From IMG/VR virus record IMGVR_UViG_3300029043_000159: DNA of 9,071 nucleotides. One strand, 5' to 3'. This DNA comes from a virus. Its lineage: Duplodnaviria > Heunggongvirae > Uroviricota > Caudoviricetes. The notes under the pieces were generated by a model. The model saw only the letters and a list, made by a program, of their open reading frames with translations, was not told the origin of the DNA and ran no database searches. Of this stretch, positions 1,630 to 9,071 are shown piece after piece (position 1 is the stretch's first letter; each line of letters opens with the position of its first letter). Position numbers and translations under genes: made by a program.

Positions 1630-3471
1630 ATGGAGCAAAACCCGCAGTCACAGCTGAAACTTCTTGTCACCCGTGGTAAGGAGCAAGGCTATCTGACCTA
1701 TGCCGAGGTCAATGACCATCTGCCGGAAGATATCGTCGATTCAGATCAGATCGAAGACATCATCCAAATGATCAACGACATGGGCATTCAGGTGATGGAA
1801 GAAGCACCGGATGCCGATGATCTGATGCTGGCTGAAAACACCGCGGACGAAGATGCTGCCGAAGCCGCCGCGCAGGTGCTTTCCAGCGTGGAATCTGAAA
1901 TCGGGCGCACGACTGACCCGGTACGCATGTACATGCGTGAAATGGGCACCGTTGAACTGTTGACCCGCGAAGGCGAAATTGACATCGCTAAGCGTATTGA
2001 AGACGGGATCAACCAGGTTCAATGCTCCGTTGCTGAATATCCGGAAGCGATCACCTATCTGCTGGAACAGTACGATCGTGTTGAAGCAGAAGAAGCGCGT
2101 CTGTCCGATCTGATCACCGGCTTTGTTGACCCGAACGCAGAAGAAGATCTGGCACCTACCGCCACTCACGTCGGTTCTGAGCTTTCCCAGGAAGATCTGG
2201 ACGATGACGAAGATGAAGACGAAGAAGATGGCGATGACGACAGCGCCGATGATGACAACAGCATCGACCCGGAACTGGCTCGCGAAAAATTTGCGGAACT
2301 GCGCGCTCAGTACGTTGTAACGCGTGACACCATCAAAGCGAAAGGTCGCAGTCACGCTGCCGCTCAGGAAGAGATCCTGAAACTGTCTGAAGTATTCAAA
2401 CAGTTCCGCCTGGTGCCGAAGCAGTTTGACTACCTGGTCAACAGCATGCGCGTCATGATGGACCGCGTTCGTACGCAAGAACGTCTGATCATGAAGCTCT
2501 GTGTTGAGCAGTGCAAAATGCCGAAGAAAAACTTCATTACCCTGTTTACCGGCAACGAAACCAGCGATACCTGGTTCAACGCGGCAATTGCGATGAACAA
2601 GCCGTGGTCGGAAAAACTGCACGATGTCTCTGAAGAAGTGCATCGCGCCCTGCAGAAACTGCAGCAGATTGAAGAAGAAACCGGCCTGACCATCGAGCAG
2701 GTTAAAGATATCAACCGTCGTATGTCCATCGGTGAAGCGAAAGCCCGCCGTGCGAAGAAAGAGATGGTTGAAGCGAACTTACGTCTGGTTATTTCTATCG
2801 CCAAGAAATACACCAACCGTGGCTTGCAGTTCCTTGACCTGATTCAGGAAGGTAACATCGGCCTGATGAAAGCGGTTGATAAATTCGAATACCGCCGTGG
2901 TTACAAGTTCTCCACCTACGCAACCTGGTGGATCCGTCAGGCGATCACCCGCTCTATCGCGGATCAGGCGCGCACCATCCGTATTCCGGTGCATATGATT
3001 GAGACTATCAACAAACTCAACCGTATTTCTCGCCAGATGCTGCAAGAGATGGGCCGTGAACCGACGCCGGAAGAACTGGCTGAACGTATGCTGATGCCGG
3101 AAGACAAGATCCGCAAAGTGCTGAAGATCGCCAAAGAGCCAATCTCCATGGAAACGCCGATCGGTGATGATGAAGATTCGCATCTGGGGGATTTCATCGA
3201 GGATACCACCCTCGAGCTGCCGCTGGATTCTGCGACCACCGAAAGCCTGCGTGCGGCAACGCACGACGTGCTGGCTGGCCTGACCGCGCGTGAAGCGAAA
3301 GTTCTGCGTATGCGCTTCGGTATCGATATGAACACCGACCACACGCTGGAAGAAGTGGGTAAACAGTTCGACGTTACCCGCGAACGTATCCGTCAGATCG
3401 AAGCGAAGGCGCTGCGCAAACTGCGTCACCCGAGCCGTTCTGAAGTGCTGCGTAGCTTCCTGGACGATTAA
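1630..3471 (+). CDS. rpoD: RNA polymerase sigma-70 factor RpoD (613 aa)
   Basis: 613-aa [39 protein letters not shown]… with the acidic linker ([14 protein letters not shown]) and conserved region 2/4 motifs (…[27 protein letters not shown]… / …[30 protein letters not shown]…). Matches E. coli sigma-70 from memory. Confidence 0.98.
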
Positions 3472-3511
3472 TCGGTAGAGGCGTTACGCCGCACCCGGCA
3501 CTAGTCCCTCT

Positions 3512-3534
3512 GCACAAACGCCACCTTTTCGGTG
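3512..3534 (+). terminator. Left half of the rpoD/mug convergent intrinsic terminator, split by the IS4 insertion
   Basis: Joining the left flank 'aaacgc' + one copy of the duplication 'caccttttcggtg' + the right flank 'gcgtttttt' reconstructs 'aaacgccacc-ttttc-ggtggcgtttttt', a 10-bp stem with a 5-nt loop followed by a T-run. With IS4 present only a 4-bp 'cacc/ggtg' stem remains on this side. Confidence 0.6.
3522..3534. repeat. IS4 target-site duplication, left copy (13 bp, 'caccttttcggtg')
   Basis: Identical 13-mer directly abuts both IS4 termini (3522-3534 and 4961-4973). Confidence 0.9.
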
Positions 3535-3583
3535 TAATGCCGATCAGTTAAGGATCAGTTGACCGATCCAGTGGCTGTGTAAG

Positions 3584-3618
3584 AATCCGGAAACGCTCAC
3601 TTGTTTCCGGATTTTTTT
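3584..3618 (+). promoter_or_regulatory. Perfect 11-bp hairpin plus T-run inside the IS4 left end, immediately 5' of the transposase ATG (terminator-like)
   Basis: 'aatccggaaac' (3584-3594), loop 'gctcactt', 'gtttccggatt' (3603-3613), then T-run to 3618; the ATG is at 3619. Seen directly in the sequence; function inferred. Confidence 0.4.
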
Positions 3619-4947
3619 ATGCACATTGGACAGGCTCTTGATCTGGTATCCCGTTACGATTCTCTGCGTAACCCACTGACTTCTCTGGGGGATTACCTCG
3701 ACCCCGAACTCATCTCTCGTTGCCTTGCCGAATCAGGTACTGTAACGCTACGCAAGCGCCGTCTTCCCCTCGAAATGATGGTCTGGTGTATTGTTGGCAT
3801 GGCGCTTGAGCGTAAAGAACCTCTTCACCAGATTGTGAATCGCCTGGACATCATGCTGCCAGGCAATCGCCCCTTCGTTGCCCCCAGTGCCGTTATTCAG
3901 GCCCGCCAGCGCCTGGGAAGTGAGGCTGTCCGCCGCGTGTTCACGAAAACAGCGCAGCTCTGGCATAACGCCACGCCGCATCCGCACTGGTGCGGCCTGA
4001 CCCTGCTGGCCATCGATGGTGTGTTCTGGCGCACACCGGATACACCAGAGAACGATGCAGCCTTCCCCCGCCAGACACATGCCGGGAACCCGGCGCTCTA
4101 CCCGCAGGTCAAAATGGTCTGCCAGATGGAACTGACCAGCCATCTGCTGACGGCTGCAGCCTTCGGCACGATGAAGAACAGCGAAAATGAGCTTGCTGAG
4201 CAACTTATAGAACAAACCGGCGATAACACTCTGACGTTAATGGATAAAGGTTATTACTCACTGGGACTGTTAAATGCCTGGAGCCTGGCGGGAGAACACC
4301 GCCACTGGATGATACCTCTCAGAAAGGGAGCGCAATATGAAGAGATCAGAAAACTGGGTAAAGGCGATCATCTGGTGAAGCTGAAAACCAGCCCGCAGGC
4401 ACGAAAAAAGTGGCCGGGACTGGGAAATGAAGTAACAGCCCGCCTGCTGACCGTGACGCGCAAAGGAAAAGTCTGCCATCTGCTGACGTCGATGACGGAC
4501 GCCATGCGCTTCCCCGGAGGAGAAATGGGGGATCTGTACAGTCATCGCTGGGAAATCGAACTGGGATACAGGGAGATAAAACAGACGATGCAACTGAGCA
4601 GGCTGACGCTGAGAAGTAAAAAGCCGGAGCTTGTGGAGCAAGAGCTGTGGGGTGTCTTACTGGCTTATAATCTGGTGAGATATCAGATGATTAAAATGGC
4701 GGAACATCTGAAAGGTTACTGGCCGAATCAACTGAGTTTCTCAGAATCATGCGGAATGGTGATGAGAATGCTGATGACATTGCAGGGCGCTTCACCGGGA
4801 CGTATACCGGAGCTGATGCGCGATCTTGCAAGTATGGGACAACTTGTGAAATTACCGACAAGAAGGGAAAGGGCCTTCCCGAGAGTGGTAAAAGAGAGGT
4901 CCTGGAAATACCCCACAGCCCCGAAAAAGAGCCAGTCAGTTGCTTAA
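3619..4947 (+). CDS. insG: IS4 transposase (442 aa from the ATG at 3619; the ORF track's 448-aa version starts at an upstream TTG at 3601)
   Basis: Translation [77 protein letters not shown]… ending …[13 protein letters not shown] matches the E. coli K-12 IS4 transposase InsG from memory. Stop TAA at 4945-4947 lies inside the right inverted repeat. Confidence 0.95.
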
Positions 4948-4960
4948 CTGACTGGCATTA

Positions 4961-4973
4961 CACCTTTTCGGTG
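4961..4973. repeat. IS4 target-site duplication, right copy (13 bp, 'caccttttcggtg')
   Basis: Identical to 3522-3534; immediately followed by 'gcgtttttt', the distal half of the split terminator stem and its T-run. Confidence 0.9.
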
Positions 4974-4980
4974 GCGTTTT

Positions 4981-5487
4981 TTATCGCCCACGCACTACCA
5001 GCGCCTGGTCCAGCTCGCGATACGCTTCAACCAGTTTATCCAGTGAAACGCGACTTAAACCACTGGGATTTGGCAGCACCCAAATCTGCGTCGAACCAAT
5101 GGTGAGCGTTTGTTTCCCCCACTGTGCACCGCGCTGGCTGAATCCCTGTTCATATGCTTGTTTGCCCAGAATCGCCAACGCCTGCGGCTGATAATCTTCA
5201 ATTTTTTCAATCAGCTTACGCCCGCCTGCGTGTAGTTCTTGCTTTGAAACTTCATTGGCTTGCACCGTTGGACGGTCTACCAGTTTGGTGACGCCACAAC
5301 GATAATCCAGCAGATGCTGTGACTCCTGCGGCTTCAACTGACGGTCGGTAAACCCGGCCTGATATATCACCTTCCAGAAGCGATTTGCCGGATGAGCAAA
5401 GGGAAAACCAGTCCCGGCAGATGAAAGCCCAGGGTTGATACCGCAAAACACGACCCGTAACCCTGGAGCCAAAATATCCTCAACCAT
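4981..5487 (-). CDS. mug: G/U mismatch-specific DNA glycosylase Mug (168 aa)
   Basis: Translation [51 protein letters not shown]… matches E. coli Mug from memory. Strong Shine-Dalgarno 'aaaggag' about 5 nt upstream of the ATG on the minus strand (5493-5499). Convergent with rpoD, as in E. coli. Confidence 0.96.
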
Positions 5488-5611
5488 ATTTACTCCTTTC
5501 TAACATCACCAGGAAAAGTATAACGGATTGAAAATACATTGTTTATAAAAACAGCAGGCGCGCGGTAATGGCTGGATTGCGACACGGAGTTACTTTATAA
5601 TCCGCTACCAT

Positions 5612-5687
5612 GGCCCCTTAGCTCAGTGGTTAGAGCAGGCGACTCATAATCGCTTGGTCGCTGGTTCAAGTCCAGCAGGGGCCACCA
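5612..5687 (+). tRNA. ileX: tRNA-Ile2 (anticodon CAU, lysidine-type), 76 nt including encoded CCA
   Basis: GGCCCCTTAGCTCAGTGGTTAGAGCAGGCGACTCATAATCGCTTGGTCGCTGGTTCAAGTCCAGCAGGGGCCACCA: 7-bp acceptor stem, GTTCAAGTCC T-arm, anticodon stem GGCGA/TCGCT flanking loop C-T-CAT-A-A. Matches E. coli ileX from memory and sits next to mug as in E. coli. Confidence 0.93.
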
Positions 5688-5695
5688 TATCTATC

Positions 5696-5732
5696 AAGGG
5701 GTTACGTTAACAGCGTGACCCCTTCGTTTTTT
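5696..5732 (+). terminator. Intrinsic terminator downstream of ileX
   Basis: Stem 'aaggggt' (5696-5702) pairs with 'acccctt' (5718-5724), followed by 'cgtttttt'. Confidence 0.55.
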
Positions 5733-5734
5733 CT

Positions 5735-5753
5735 AGGATACCTATAGGATACC
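5735..5753. repeat. Direct repeat 'taggatacc' x2 spaced at a 10-bp period, just downstream of the ileX terminator
   Basis: 'taggatacc' at 5735-5743 and 5745-5753. A related GATACCC/GGGTATC inverted pair occurs at about 6071-6090. Confidence 0.5.
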
Positions 5754-6013
5754 GTGACAGAGTATAAGCAGGTATAAAAACAACAAGTTACGCAACATCA
5801 TACCTGTCATGAAACTTTAACTATCCGACATGATAGCTGGTCGATGATCACGGATAATCCGTTATGTGGATCCCCATATCGGCATCAGGCCCACCAGCGT
5901 GAAGCGTTTTTCATTTTTCGCGGGTATAAAAAATCGATGGGGCTGGCAGTCCGGAAGACGTCAGGGTACAGAGATTTGACCCGCCCCTCCCTGTGCATGA
6001 GCACAATAAGTAA

Positions 6014-6037
6014 CCGAAGGCGGAATTCCGCCCTCGG
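6014..6037. repeat. GC-rich hairpin 'ccgaaggcgg-aatt-ccgccctcgg' (10-bp arms, one mismatch)
   Basis: Read directly from the sequence; lies in an ORF-poor stretch between ileX and the phage-like genes. Confidence 0.5.
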
Positions 6038-6162
6038 TACTTACATATGAGAAACGATATTTCTTCCACCGATACCCTTTATTTGGGTATCGCGAGTAAG
6101 CCCCAAAATCTGGGTGTTACTCTTACTACCCAAACTACGGGTAGTTTCCGTAGTTTCATAGT

Positions 6163-6184
6163 CGAGTTGCAGATCTGCAACTCG
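6163..6184. repeat. Perfect 22-bp palindrome 'cgagttgcagatctgcaactcg'
   Basis: The sequence equals its own reverse complement. A second inverted repeat 'aagtgca-ttttt-gcactt' lies at about 6196-6213, both just 3' of the minus-strand 95-aa ORF. Confidence 0.6.
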
Positions 6185-6231
6185 CCACCAGTTGCTAAGT
6201 GCATTTTTGCACTTTCGGTAATATCAACCAG

Positions 6232-6519
6232 TTACCGCCGTAAGTGCTCCGGCTTCCTCCACTGGTAAGTATTTTTCGCGCTCTCCCTCCGTTGTTGAGA
6301 ACGGCGACGGTATGCCAGCAACTCAAGAACTCTGGTTCGTATGTTGCGCATATCCACGCCGTTAAGCTCAATACCGTCACGGAGCATCACCTCAGCCACC
6401 ACACGCGCGTAATTTTCAGCGGTGACTGTATCCGGCTGCGCGGCCTGTTCGTCAACCAACTGGCTGATTCCACCAGCACAGCGGATTAATCGCAGTATTT
6501 CAGATTCGGTCATTATCAT
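6232..6519 (-). CDS. Hypothetical protein (95 aa), translationally coupled to the upstream TerS-like gene by an ATGA overlap
   Basis: ORF MIMTESEILRLIRCAGGISQLVDEQAAQPDTVTAENYARVVAEVMLRDGIELNGVDMRNIRTRVLELLAYRRRSQQRR…; its ATG (6517-6519) overlaps the TGA stop (6516-6518) of the preceding gene. No family recognised; could be a stand-alone small protein or the residual N-terminus of a deleted downstream gene. Confidence 0.55.
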   Translation of the reverse strand: MIMTESEILRLIRCAGGISQLVDEQAAQPDTVTAENYARVVAEVMLRDGIELNGVDMRNIRTRVLELLAYRRRSQQRRESAKNTYQWRKPEHLRR

Positions 6520-7001
6520 GCCTGTTTTGCGACCTCATTCACTACGTCATTTTTTACCATCCGGCTGATAATCTGATTACGCAAATCGTCAATAATTGAC
6601 TGCACTCTGTTTACTGCCATCGGTTTAAGCCCAGCATCACGTGCCAGAATATTGGGGAGTTTTGCCAGTTCCTCGCTTACGACCTCCCCCCATATAGCCA
6701 TCTCTTTTCGCACATCATCGGCGGGTATGAGTTGCGCCGTTTCCTGTTCGAACTTGAGGCGCTCACGTTCGGACTGATACCAGGCCTTACGGTCATGTGG
6801 CTCCATTTCTTCCAGTGATGCCGGAACGGGAAGATCAAGAAAACAGGTCAGAATGTCAGTCACCCGATAGAGTTTCAGCTTGTCATGCCCTCCGGCTGGC
6901 TGGATGTTTTTCAGCCTTGCCGCCGCAGTCTGACGACATATTCCCGCTATCGCCGCCAGTTGGTTAATGTTCAGCATCAGATTTTTCAGTTCTCGATCCA
7001 T
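6516..7001 (-). CDS. Phage terminase small subunit-like protein (lambda Nu1-like N-terminal DNA-binding domain), 161 aa from the ATG at 7001
   Basis: Start chosen at the Met preceded by 'ctggagcggat' (GGAG about 5 nt upstream); the ORF track's longer version begins in the promoter region. N-terminus 'LNINQLAAIAGICRQTAAARLKNIQPAGGHDKLKLYRVTDIL' parallels lambda Nu1 'VNKKQLADIFGASIRTIQNWQEQGMPVLRGGGKGNEVLYDSAAVI' (N-x-x-QLA-x-I-x-G … GG … LY pattern). Similarity judged by eye from memory of Nu1; it could instead be another helix-turn-helix protein. Confidence 0.5.
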   Translation of the reverse strand: MDRELKNLMLNINQLAAIAGICRQTAAARLKNIQPAGGHDKLKLYRVTDILTCFLDLPVPASLEEMEPHDRKAWYQSERERLKFEQETAQLIPADDVRKEMAIWGEVVSEELAKLPNILARDAGLKPMAVNRVQSIIDDLRNQIISRMVKNDVVNEVAKQA

Positions 7002-7228
7002 ATCCGCTCCAGAATGTTTTAAACATGCATATTGCGAACAACTTTCAGAAGAGGTCAAAAAATGCGCTATATGTTGAGCACAAAACAAGCAAAATTAACA
7101 TACCAAAAATAAAAATACTTAAAATTCAATATCATAGAAAGATGATGATGACGAATGAAAATGCAAAAACTAGCCTTTTTCCGCGCCGCTCCCGCCCCGT
7201 GGCAGGCCACCCCACCGGGAGGACCCGT

Positions 7229-7252
7229 AAAAAAGGCGGCTATAGCCGCCCT
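7229..7252 (-). terminator. Intrinsic terminator acting on minus-strand transcription (perfect 16-bp palindrome 'ggcggctatagccgcc' with a flanking A-run on the plus strand)
   Basis: Plus strand reads 'aaaaaa-ggcggctatagccgcc'; on the minus strand this is a GC hairpin followed by UUUUUU. Lies at the 3' side of the ClpP-like remnant and upstream of the TerS-like gene. Confidence 0.55.
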
Positions 7253-7335
7253 TGAACACTTCACTGATTCTATTAATGCGCTTCTGCTCTCCACCAGCAA
7301 TATTTGCCTCCCCCTGTAGCGATGTAATCATTCCT

Positions 7336-7650
7336 TTAATGTTTTCCGGCATATGTAAAAGTCTCCCGGGCGTTTCGATTCAATTCGCGCCATTGCTCTG
7401 ACAGATGGCAACAATTCATCAGCAAAACCGTGCTTAAGACATTCTTTTCCATCTAAGTTTCATCTTCCTGCATGTCGGCAATTTCCTGTGCCGATTTGCC
7501 CGTTTTTCTGGCATAAGCAGGGATTAATACGGTTTCTACCTTACCCAGCAAATCAGCATAATCACGCATATCGCCAGAGATACCCCACGGCTTATGGATC
7601 ATCATGCAACACATTCGAAATATGCCTCTGTTAATTAAGCCTTTTTTCTG
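7336..7650 (-). pseudogene. Remnant of a ClpP-family (S14-like) serine protease gene, possibly a phage prohead protease: 5'-truncated with an in-frame TAG
   Basis: Minus-strand frame reads …NRGIFRMCCMMIHKPWGISGDMRDYADLLGKVETVLIPAYARKTGKSAQEIADMQEDET*MEKNVLSTVLL…. 'MMIHKPWG … TGKSAQEIADMQED' parallels E. coli ClpP 'RVMIHQPLGG … TGQSLEQIERDTERD' (catalytic His region). The frame opens only after a stop at 7651-7653 with no upstream coding partner, and has an in-frame TAG (plus 7453-7455). By-eye homology from memory. Confidence 0.45.
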
Positions 7651-7710
7651 CTAATGGGCATTGGTTAACTCCAAATGCAATACACCACCATTTATATGGT
7701 TAAAGGCACG

Positions 7711-7739
7711 TTGCATTGAGTTACACATAGTAATATATT
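7711..7739 (+). promoter_or_regulatory. Candidate sigma70 promoter TTGCAT-N17-TATATT driving the AT-rich plus-strand cassette
   Basis: -35 'ttgcat' at 7711-7716, 17-nt spacer, -10 'tatatt' at 7734-7739, within very AT-rich DNA. Confidence 0.4.
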
Positions 7740-7797
7740 AATAAAAAAAATAAATTATGGTATTACTAATGGACATTATCGGCTTCGTTAATAACCC

Positions 7798-8376
7798 GTG
7801 GTTTGTAGGTATCGCTGGAGGGGACTTATTACAACCTGGATTGGTCGCAAGGTTTTTTCTGGTAAAGACAAAAAAGAGTATTTGCTAAAGGTCGAGGCGA
7901 CTAACAAAGAAATAGTTTACTCTTTACGGTCAGCTATATCTGACGCTATCCACCATGATAGAAAAGTAATATTGAGTTTAATGGCTGCAACTGCAAGAAA
8001 AAATGGCGTTTTGCTAAAAGACATTTACACTATTAAAGAAATCACGGAGGATTTAATTAAGGAAGTGATTGATTCTAGCTTCATCCCTTCAGATTATAAA
8101 AAGAATTTTTGCGAAACTCTTTCGAAGATTTATCTCCATGCTGAACCAGCAACAGAAGAATCTTCAGAGAAATATATTTATGAGAAAGAGCAAGCCGCTC
8201 ATCTTTCTAGAAAAAACGAAAGTATCATTGCGAGTGCTACAACTCTTCTTGGCGTTATGGTAGCCTTATTAACGTTCGCATTATCATTCATTCAAAGCGG
8301 TAGTTCAGCACTTGACACACTTCGGGAAGCGCTATTCTTTGGAATTGGGCCGGCTATAGCAAAGTATTCCCAGTAG
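7798..8376 (+). CDS. Hypothetical protein with a single C-terminal transmembrane helix (up to 192 codons; true start uncertain, an in-frame ATG at 7981 would give 131 aa)
   Basis: Only sizeable plus-strand ORF in the AT-rich cassette; AT-rich codon usage. Hydrophobic segment 'IIASATTLLGVMVALLTFALSFI' near the C-terminus. No family recognised. The GTG at 7798 has no obvious Shine-Dalgarno sequence. Confidence 0.45.
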   Translation: MVCRYRWRGLITTWIGRKVFSGKDKKEYLLKVEATNKEIVYSLRSAISDAIHHDRKVILSLMAATARKNGVLLKDIYTIKEITEDLIKEVIDSSFIPSDYKKNFCETLSKIYLHAEPATEESSEKYIYEKEQAAHLSRKNESIIASATTLLGVMVALLTFALSFIQSGSSALDTLREALFFGIGPAIAKYSQ

Positions 8377-8405
8377 CTTTCCCAGCTTTCATCGCGTTGG
8401 TGTCA

Positions 8406-8546
8406 ATGATGATATTGGTCATAATAAAAACAGTAATAAATAAAAAGGAAAGGACCTTCTTTATTTCAGCAGAGCCACAGGAGAATAAAAATAATAAAAC
8501 AGAAAACGCTAAGAAAGAAAGTGGCGATGAAAAAGATTCGAAGTAG
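8406..8546 (+). CDS. Possible small membrane peptide (46 aa from the ATG; the frame is open upstream and encodes a hydrophobic stretch followed by a Lys/Glu-rich tail)
   Basis: Open frame from 8316 reads …FPAFIALVSMMILVIIKTVINKKERTFFISAEPQENKNNKTENAKKESGDEKDSK*. It overlaps the 3' end of the 192-codon ORF in another frame; no clear ribosome-binding site. Confidence 0.2.
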   Translation: MMILVIIKTVINKKERTFFISAEPQENKNNKTENAKKESGDEKDSK

Positions 8547-8578
8547 TTTTTTGTAAATTGACTTCAAATAACAGATTA

Positions 8579-8606
8579 AAGGTTGCTCCGATATGGGGTA
8601 ACCTTT
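8579..8606 (+). terminator. Weak hairpin plus T-rich tract, possible terminator for the plus-strand cassette
   Basis: 'aaggtt' … 'aacctt' with a 16-nt loop, followed by 'ttatatattttta'. Weak. Confidence 0.2.
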
Positions 8607-8653
8607 TATATATTTTTATACAGATATACTCGGTCATTTATGGAATATTATGA

Positions 8654-9071
8654 TTAAGCCCATAACTCACCACTTTCTGATTCTTGCGCCCTTCGAACCA
8701 TCTCATCGCGTAAATCATCTATAACGCCCTGAACACGCGATACCGCTGACGGCGTTAACGCACAATCTCGTTAGAGGATATCCGGAAGCGTTTCCAGTTC
8801 CTGAACAACAGCCTTTGCCAGGGTGGAATATTCACGCGCAACCTCTTCAGAGGGTAGAAGCTCCCGTTCTTCTTTTTCGAGCTTGAGCCTTTCATTTTCC
8901 CACTGATACCATGCCTTTCTATCCTGCGGCGACATTTCACCATTTCCTCGCACCGATGGCATGATAAGCACTCGTAAGGCTTTCCCAAGTTCGTACTGTT
9001 TAAGGTTTTCCCCGTTCCCGCCGACTAACTCCAGATCACGCAGCCGCCGCGCAACCAAGTTACGATTCATG
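8654..9071 (-). pseudogene. Second, diverged terminase-small-subunit-like gene: in-frame TAA (plus 8771-8773), 5' end beyond the window
   Basis: Minus-strand frame reads …SPQDRKAWYQWENERLKLEKEERELLPSEEVAREYSTLAKAVVQELETLPDIL*RDCALTPSAVSRVQGVIDDLRDEMVRRAQESESGELWA*. It aligns along its length with copy 1 (…EPHDRKAWYQSERERLKFEQETAQLIPADDVRKEMAIWGEVVSEELAKLPNILARDAGLKPMAVNRVQSIIDDLRNQIISRMV…); the TAA sits where copy 1 has Ala. The N-terminal alignment implies the true start is past position 9071. Confidence 0.6.

Follow-up and report, generated by a model that had tools for sequence, protein, structure and literature searches.

The convergent genes rpoD (sigma-70) and mug are separated by a complete copy of the insertion sequence (IS) IS4 in a 9,071-nt stretch of DNA filed as a virus of the Caudoviricetes (IMG/VR record IMGVR_UViG_3300029043_000159; the whole stretch is called the window here). 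We consider it quite likely that this copy represents a routine cut-and-paste insertion of IS4 into a preferred and repeatedly hit palindromic target, with the hairpins at the two ends of the element probably replacing the terminator that was split. The identical position is occupied by IS4 in 77 other complete Escherichia coli genomes (~1.4% of the 5426 searched), 39 of them in the orientation of the window and 38 inverted, these being counts of genomes and not of independent events.

The insertion site

IS4 (3535-4960) is flanked by an exact 13-bp direct repeat, CACCTTTTCGGTG, at 3522-3534 and 4961-4973. Deleting the element and one repeat in silico restores the sequence ...ACAAACGCCACCTTTTCGGTGGCGTTTTTTATC, which contains the hairpin AAACGCCACC-TTTTC-GGTGGCGTTTTTT, written in its full context as ACAAACGCCACC-TTTTC-GGTGGCGTTTTTTATC. 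On the + strand, this hairpin has a 10-bp stem and a 5-nt loop followed by U6 (-16.5 kcal/mol, z = -5.35, as good in 0 of 200 shuffles). On the - strand, the same stem is followed by UUUGUG (-18.5 kcal/mol), leaving a short U-run of three residues in the mug direction. Each transcribed strand of the restored site therefore carries a GC-rich hairpin with a U-run, and the site is a predicted bidirectional intrinsic terminator. A terminator following rpoD in the rpsU-dnaG-rpoD operon has reportedly been described in older literature.

The duplicated 13 bp comprise the inner 4 bp of each arm and the loop. A previous sequence-only reading of the window had taken the duplication for the palindromic core of the hairpin, and the fold of the reconstructed site bears this out. 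The left half of the target (3516-3534, + strand) contains the A-tract, the complete 5' arm AAACGCCACC (3516-3525), the loop and the inner 4 nt of the 3' arm, and the right half (4961-4981, + strand) contains the second copy of the duplication (4961-4973), the outer 3' arm GCG and the T-tract. Both flanks retain just a 4-bp CACC/GGTG stem, again as first described from the sequence, and the fold across the left junction is not significant (z = -0.84). The native convergent rpoD/mug hairpin is destroyed on both flanks by the insertion.

The 300-nt reconstructed empty site gives one contiguous alignment in 5286 of the 5426 complete E. coli genomes, K-12 included, with 100% identity in three of them. 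Strain MS1679, the closest relative of the island located downstream in the window, has the empty site as well, and a BLAST search with the window splits there into two blocks overlapping by exactly 13 bp. The two comparisons proposed together with the sequence-only reading, with IS-free genomes and between the folding energies of the intact and the split hairpin, both support its description of the site.

Identity and anatomy of the element

By every defining feature tested, the element is an intact IS4, as had been proposed. It is 1426 bp long, lies in the same orientation as rpoD (+ strand) and shows 99.6% identity to the IS4 of K-12 (NC_000913.3, 4502090-4503515), from which it differs at 6 of 1426 nt and by two amino acids (R326L, P428S). 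Matches at 99.7-100% in E. coli genomes are annotated as IS4. The element begins with TAATGCCGATCAGTTAAG... and ends with ...CTTAACTGACTGGCATTA. The left terminal inverted repeat (IRL; 3535-3552, + strand; TAATGCCGATCAGTTAAG) equals the reverse complement of the right end at 16 of 18 positions, while the right terminal inverted repeat (IRR; 4943-4960, + strand; reverse complement TAATGCCAGTCAGTTAAG) forms one arm of the right-end hairpin described below. A length of ~1.4 kb is thus combined with imperfect 18-bp inverted repeats of the -AATR...WTW type, the end signature of the IS4 subgroup (PMC2266710, Table 1).

The element has a single open reading frame encoding a 442-aa DDE transposase, from the ATG at 3619 to the stop at 4947 (+ strand; Pfam Nterm_IS4, 3e-33; DDE_Tnp_1, 2.5e-31). 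RefSeq copies are annotated from an upstream TTG at 3601, giving 448 aa, and no record has exactly the 448-aa product of the window copy. The Y(2)R(3)E(6)K motif was read from the sequence at codons 4541-4585 and, together with the IS4 N-terminal domain, defines the family (PMC2266710). The target-site duplication of 13 bp falls within the 10-13 bp expected for IS4, and duplications of 11, 12 or 13 bp surround other IS4 copies.

The K-12 copy (insG, the founding member of the IS4 family) shares the 1426 bp, the ends and the 442-aa transposase but lies elsewhere, between yjgZ and nanX in the KpLE2 element, which agrees with the earlier remark that the window copy is not at the K-12 position. 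The K-12 target (duplication CAGAACCAAGAT) also has the AAA...TTT arms but contains no hairpin.

Three GATC (Dam) sites are present within the first 34 nt of IS4 (window 3542-3568), one in the terminal repeat (3542-3545) and two (3553-3556 and 3565-3568) flanking a -35-like TTGACC. Their placement suggests that methylation controls both the use of the ends and the promoter, by analogy with IS10 and IS50. Such sites close to the ends of IS4 have reportedly been noted before.

Inward-facing hairpins at the ends of IS4

Both ends of IS4 carry a stable hairpin with a U-run facing the incoming transcription. The left-end hairpin (3581-3618, + strand) is an inverted repeat, AAGAAUCCGGAAAC-GCUCACUU-GUUUCCGGAUU, with a 12-15 bp stem and a 6-8 nt loop followed by U7 (-18.4 kcal/mol, z = -6.2), and ends 1 nt before the transposase ATG (3619). 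The right-end hairpin (4956-4924, - strand), GCCAGUCAGUU-AAGC-AACUGACUGGC, starts 4 nt inside the IS4 end and has an 11-bp stem followed by UCUUUUU (-18.7 kcal/mol, z = -6.1). Neither is less stable than the native hairpin that was split (-16.5 kcal/mol).

A hairpin with a T-run is found at both positions in eight out of eight diverged complete metagenome elements that share the terminal 19 nt of IS4. Apart from these ends, seven of them hardly align with IS4, and one (locus L139) shows 84% identity along the whole element. The stem of the left hairpin varies in sequence among relatives, but its position between a conserved TTGAC and the ATG stays the same. In the left alignment, part of which consists of sequences picked for having a hairpin, 10 of 12 pairs show compensatory change and 96.7% of the cells are paired, with 0 of 500 shuffles as good and 22-49% pairing in slid controls; two of nine pairs covary in the right hairpin. 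The end hairpins are thus conserved through compensatory change.

A different role for these hairpins has to be considered, in which they would be palindromes bound by the transposase or a host factor, or a mask over the ribosome-binding site, so that transcription would enter IS4 and translation of the transposase would be blocked. The right-end hairpin indeed consists of the terminal inverted repeat and an inverted copy of it, as in a duplicated binding site, and the AATCC/GGATT base of the left stem, within which the likely GGA ribosome-binding site lies, has kept its sequence. Sequestration of the ribosome-binding site is also how IS10 and IS50 are protected from outside transcription. However, five to eight T residues directly follow the stem at both ends in nearly all relatives despite the changes in the stem, which neither a binding site nor a mask would need, and the upper part of the left stem varies freely with compensatory change, which is typical of an RNA structure and not of a protein-binding sequence. 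We therefore regard this explanation as rather unlikely, although it is the best of the alternatives.

Two side observations concern the right-end hairpin. The IS4 copy at rpoD/mug of strain UMNF18 (locus L002, ~4061) has a C-to-A change in it (GCCAGTAAGTT) that breaks one stem pair; the site drops from the terminator scan, and a premature stop shortens the annotated transposase by three codons. In the RNA read from mug into the element (4915-4983, - strand), pairing is possible between the duplicated loop segment CCGAAAAGG and the CUUUUUCGG after the right-end hairpin. The extended structure (-33.5 kcal/mol, z = -7.5) is a coincidence specific to this site and might alter termination at that hairpin.

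Predicted transcription across the insertion

The transposase and rpoD are both encoded on the + strand and mug on the - strand, as the open reading frame coordinates confirm. Given the conserved structure of the end hairpins and a stability no lower than that of the lost terminator, read-through is expected to stop just inside IS4. Transcripts of rpoD are predicted to end at about 3618, ~85 nt past the old terminator and short of the transposase ATG, and those of mug at about 4924, ~45 nt past the old terminator. Read-through would probably be confined to the first ~85 nt of the element on the rpoD side and ~37 nt on the mug side. In the 38 inverted copies, the two IS4 ends would exchange roles.

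A putative promoter found by consensus scan (TTGACC, 16 nt, TG-n-AAGAAT; 3559-3586, + strand) has a -10 element that overlaps the base of the left hairpin, and the start is predicted ~7 nt downstream, at ~3593, inside the 5' arm. TTGAC and xAxAAT are retained at the same spacing in diverged relatives. The transcript predicted from 3593 is unstructured around GGA and AUG (z = +1.7). The transcript of IS4 itself would thus start within the 5' arm and lack most of it, so that it would evade the hairpin and its weak GGA ribosome-binding site would stay accessible, whereas transcripts from outside would hold the whole hairpin and be terminated or masked. This layout resembles that of IS10 and IS50, where an upstream segment of the outside transcript pairs with the start region and the element's own transcript starts inside that segment and escapes. 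The block in IS10 and IS50 is translational, whereas the structure in IS4 also has the shape of a terminator, with a second one predicted at the other end.

The net change in the expression of rpoD, mug and the transposase would probably be small. Such a small effect would explain why both orientations persist, and the insertion may be nearly neutral.

The sequence-only reading had instead expected rpoD read-through to enter the transposase gene and mug transcripts to run antisense through it. In its full form, this explanation holds that the insertion ends termination for both genes, that strong rpoD transcription reads into and drives the transposase, with antisense transcription entering from mug, and that the 3' ends are altered, resulting in an unusual host-driven expression. 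The 10-bp native hairpin is truly split, with a 4-bp stem remaining in each flank, and the co-oriented transposase ATG is only 147 nt away from the rpoD stop. Intrinsic terminators are moreover seldom 100% efficient, making some passage beyond the IS4 hairpin plausible. Against this stand the stable and conserved structures that a transcript would meet, specifically the 12-15 bp hairpin with U7 before the ATG and the 11-bp hairpin with UCUUUUU 4 nt inside the right end. In a read-through RNA, the left hairpin would also bury the GGA upstream of the AUG. The near-equal occupancy in both orientations (39 versus 38 genomes) gives no sign that co-orientation with rpoD matters. We consider extensive read-through unlikely, and the expectation is not upheld by the hairpin and U-run predicted to act at each IS4 end.

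Target selection by IS4

The target was derived from an exact-pattern scan for the left end of IS4 in GTDB species genomes, which gave 44 loci (E. coli, S. flexneri, Kosakonia, Scandinavium, Photorhabdus and others), and from a scan of metagenome contigs with a pattern matching either IS4 end, which gave at least 120 further loci. The 40 unique left flanks from GTDB have A at -18 in 34, G at -1 in 33 and G at -4 in 31. Among the matches listed, 175 unique IS4-type flanks were compared with control positions: 59% contain a run of at least four A residues at -26 to -13 (4.7% at random positions in the same loci), and 69% a perfect stem of at least 3 bp with its 3' arm ending at the insertion point (~20% in controls). 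The same pattern is found separately at the IRL (46 flanks) and the IRR (21 flanks) of IS4 proper and the target is therefore symmetric. It spans ~25 bp and consists of an A-tract, ~3 nt, CNCC...GGNG (11-13 bp, duplicated), ~3 nt and a T-tract. The strong target selectivity attributed to IS4 by the sequence-only reading is borne out by this consensus.

The rpoD/mug site, AAA-CGC-[CACCTTTTCGGTG]-GCG-TTTTTT (inner part CACC TTTTC GGTG), fits the consensus at every informative position. Of nine distinct complete IS4 sites, five yield a central hairpin of 9-16 bp once reconstructed, in several cases with A and T runs, and the remaining four, among them the K-12 site, form no hairpin. The target is thus a palindromic sequence consensus that terminators naturally meet rather than a requirement for a terminator. 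The complete diverged metagenome elements were not used to define targets, as six of the seven have no matching duplication, probably owing to chimeric assembly across repeated copies.

The target behaviour agrees with reports on the IS4 subgroup, among them that of De Palmenaer et al. Reports from the early 1980s are said to describe IS4 in the pheST attenuator and at a single galT site, and a consensus of AAA-N20-TTT reportedly dates from 1981-1984. The sequence-only reading had offered pheST as a precedent. The terminator part of this stands, as the pheST attenuator of K-12 (AAAGC-CTCCCAGTGGAG-GCTTTTTTT) is an intrinsic terminator hairpin that fits the derived rule, in agreement with the insertion reported there. 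The targets reported at pheST and galT are likewise highly selective and have AAA and TTT flanks, but those insertions were reportedly laboratory mutants selected by phenotype, whereas the alleles at rpoD/mug occur naturally, lie between convergent genes and show no phenotype that would obviously have been selected.

A similar preference has been reported for IS231A of Bacillus thuringiensis, another member of the IS4 family, for which Hallet et al. in 1994 reportedly described a GGG-N5-CCC target with A and T tracts. Both elements would share a terminator-like target with an A-tract, a GC palindrome and a T-tract, and a duplication of about one helical turn. IS231A reportedly differs in belonging to another subgroup, with other ends (CAT...), another consensus and a duplication of 10-12 bp.

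Several ISs that target repetitive extragenic palindromes (REPs) also insert at a fixed point in extragenic GC-rich palindromes, namely IS1397 and ISKpn1; ISPpu9/10 and ISPa11, both of the IS110 family; and ISRm22 (Tobes and Pareja, 2006; PMC1525189). ISRm22, which belongs to the IS4 family, uses REP palindromes only (PMC1525189). In contrast, the IS4 of the window passed over a REP-like palindrome located 20 nt upstream and took the terminator, and the A and T tracts are part of the IS4 rule. Elements of the IS110 type differ further in their RNA-guided recognition.

Elements with IS4-type ends also lie within REP-like GCGGGCTTGCCC palindromes in Pseudomonas-like metagenome contigs. In environmental contigs, pairs of IS4-type ends were found 60-150 bp apart (L058, 1718-1884; L071, 850-1016; L098, 8423-8578; L126, 5080-5159). 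These represent miniature, non-autonomous derivatives of the IS4 subgroup, resembling miniature inverted-repeat transposable elements, and several are inside REP-like sequence of the Pseudomonas type.

Recurrence at rpoD/mug

The occupied genomes were identified with a 300-nt probe across the left junction and with a second probe in which IS4 is inverted. IS4 abuts the same base (...TTTTCGGTG|TAATGCC) in all six copies that were read (IAI39, UMNF18, 1517k, F2_81, cq9 and S. flexneri SFBU1023), and the five E. coli copies have the identical 13-bp duplication on both sides. The occurrence of two orientations requires at least two insertion events. Recurrence is further supported by UMNF18 (+) and cq9 (-), as their flanks show no difference over 2.5 kb although IS4 is in opposite orientation, with the two copies 6 single-nucleotide polymorphisms (SNPs) apart. 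IS4 copies at this site differ among themselves by 3-17 SNPs.

The spacer between rpoD and IS4 gives a further marker. In the window, its REP-like palindrome (3472-3515) lacks 8 bp, GCCGGATC, that are present in most or nearly all E. coli. The deleted and the undeleted spacer allele are each found in three states, empty, with IS4 in + and with IS4 in - orientation. The deleted allele is empty in three complete genomes (KE55, 18KM2445 and AST215) and carries the inverted IS4 in F2_81; its combination with the + orientation had no match among complete E. coli genomes and is represented by the window allele only.

IS4 occupies about 5400 places in 2652 of the 5426 complete E. coli genomes, so that rpoD/mug accounts for roughly 1.4% of the copies and is one favoured target among many. 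The perfect match of its hairpin to the target rule explains why the site was hit repeatedly and in both orientations. The sequence-only reading had presented the site as a notable coincidence, a view that does not hold given the 77 other occupied genomes, the two orientations and the match to the consensus.

A single ancient insertion, after which inheritance and homologous recombination carried the occupied allele further with no hotspot involved, would account for the insertion point and duplication being exactly alike in all occupied alleles, and the recombination of E. coli core genes could move such an allele into other backgrounds. It is nevertheless very improbable, since the two orientations would still need a second transposition, the identical flanks of UMNF18 and cq9 surround opposite orientations, the copies are 3-17 SNPs apart, and the site fits an independently derived IS4 consensus at every informative position. 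Chance is ruled out by the exact 13-bp repeat around an IS4 of exactly 1426 bp and the contiguous empty site in thousands of genomes.

RefSeq genomes, IAI39 and CE10 among them, already carry an annotation of the occupied allele. In a literature search, no paper was found that mentions IS4 at rpoD/mug, nor anything specific on IS4 insertion in terminators, on pheS or galT as IS4 targets, or on impinging transcription and IS4; a paper on Shigella ISs mentions the expansion of IS4 and neither rpoD nor terminators (PMC7373316). Shared occupancy of rpoD/mug should not be taken as shared ancestry in typing or phylogeny.

Some ~63 genomes have neither the contiguous empty site nor IS4 at rpoD/mug. 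A third class of insertion in the hairpin was considered for them and rejected, as the one genome inspected (GF130; locus L172, 3316-3993) has an alternative spacer and no other element in the hairpin. The rpoD-mug spacer of GF130 contains a 564-nt gene of the NADAR family and lacks the canonical hairpin; rpoD has another terminator there, AAGCCCTCCATCGTGAGGGCTTTTTTTT. With one genome inspected, spacers of this type may account for many of the ~63.

In S. flexneri SFBU1023 (locus L036, CP182556.1), the repeat at the right IS4 junction (~3517 of the locus) reads CTCCCCCGGTGACGTTT and not CACCTTTTCGGTGGCGTTT, which is exactly how another IS4 copy of that genome (L025) is flanked. A short tract of conversion or recombination has apparently extended from IS4 into the flank and ended in the shared CGGTGNCGTTT, although an error is possible, as the assembly is rich in indels.

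Interpretation and implications

Several points weigh against a routine insertion with replacement of the terminator. Termination at the IS4 hairpins is a prediction, and the AATCC/GGATT base of the left stem and the palindrome at the right end might alternatively serve as DNA sites for protein binding. A standard terminator scan listed the right-end site and not the left one, whose stem extends into the U-run and which required a looser scan. The selection within the left alignment leaves the eight complete elements as the unbiased support for conservation, four of the nine distinct sites contain no hairpin, and the orientation counts do not represent independent events. Taken with these points, the insertion into a recurrent palindromic target with replacement by the end hairpins is still the explanation that we consider quite likely.

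A wider interpretation is that the IS4 subgroup consists of ‘terminator-swap’ elements. The transposase would recognize the A-tract/GC-palindrome/T-tract shape of bidirectional terminators, and of REP-like hairpins in some hosts. Insertion at the axis of the palindrome would bring in two inward terminators that restore termination for both neighbours, and a promoter within the base of the left terminator would let only the element's own transcript reach the transposase. That this is both functionally true and not already described seems to us possible, with a chance somewhat below even. No paper stating it for IS4 was found in a search that did not extend to the early IS4 literature, where part of it may already be described. 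If true, insertions would be nearly invisible to the host, which would explain recurrent, orientation-neutral occupancy such as that of rpoD/mug.

In the present case, rpoD, an essential and highly expressed gene, has lost its own terminator, and the element most likely supplies a replacement, so that no strong phenotype is expected. The target rule and the inward hairpins together form a testable model, in which terminators would be safe landing sites where neighbours are undisturbed and the element is not driven by them. The layout of a promoter within a terminator at the left end would be a compact natural insulator that can be tested and reused.

Neighbouring genes and the downstream island

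The window starts with a partial dnaG (44-1435), followed by rpoD (1630-3471, + strand), a 613-aa open reading frame with Pfam Sigma70 regions 1.1 to 4 that is annotated as rpoD in matching genomes. The 3' untranslated spacer with the REP-like palindrome (3472-3515, + strand) was aligned with IAI39, UMNF18 and 1517k. The rpoD stop is separated from IS4 by 63 nt, and the right end of IS4 from mug by 20 nt. The mug gene (4981-5487, - strand), which encodes the G/U mismatch-specific DNA glycosylase, is convergent with rpoD and was identified by its 168-aa open reading frame, its Pfam UDG domain and the annotation of matching genomes. Its stop codon (4981-4983, - strand) is abutted by the T-tract of the target.

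A tRNA gene with anticodon CAU (5612-5687) follows, which ARAGORN calls tRNA-Met and RefSeq labels tRNA-Ile in the identical gene. It is of the ileX type, in which the CAU anticodon is modified and reads AUA. A search of 3300-5800 against Rfam gave this tRNA and nothing else; an antisense match to Plastid-ycf2 over the bases of the tRNA (5612-5687) was weak, below threshold and dismissed as spurious.

The region 3' of the tRNA (5700-9071) is a degraded phage-like island with two DUF1441 genes on the - strand (6516-7088 and 8771-9070). MS1679, the best match to the island (99.6%), contains a ClpP-like prohead protease pseudogene in it. Other strains have nfeF or an integrase at the same tRNA, which points to a variable integration site.

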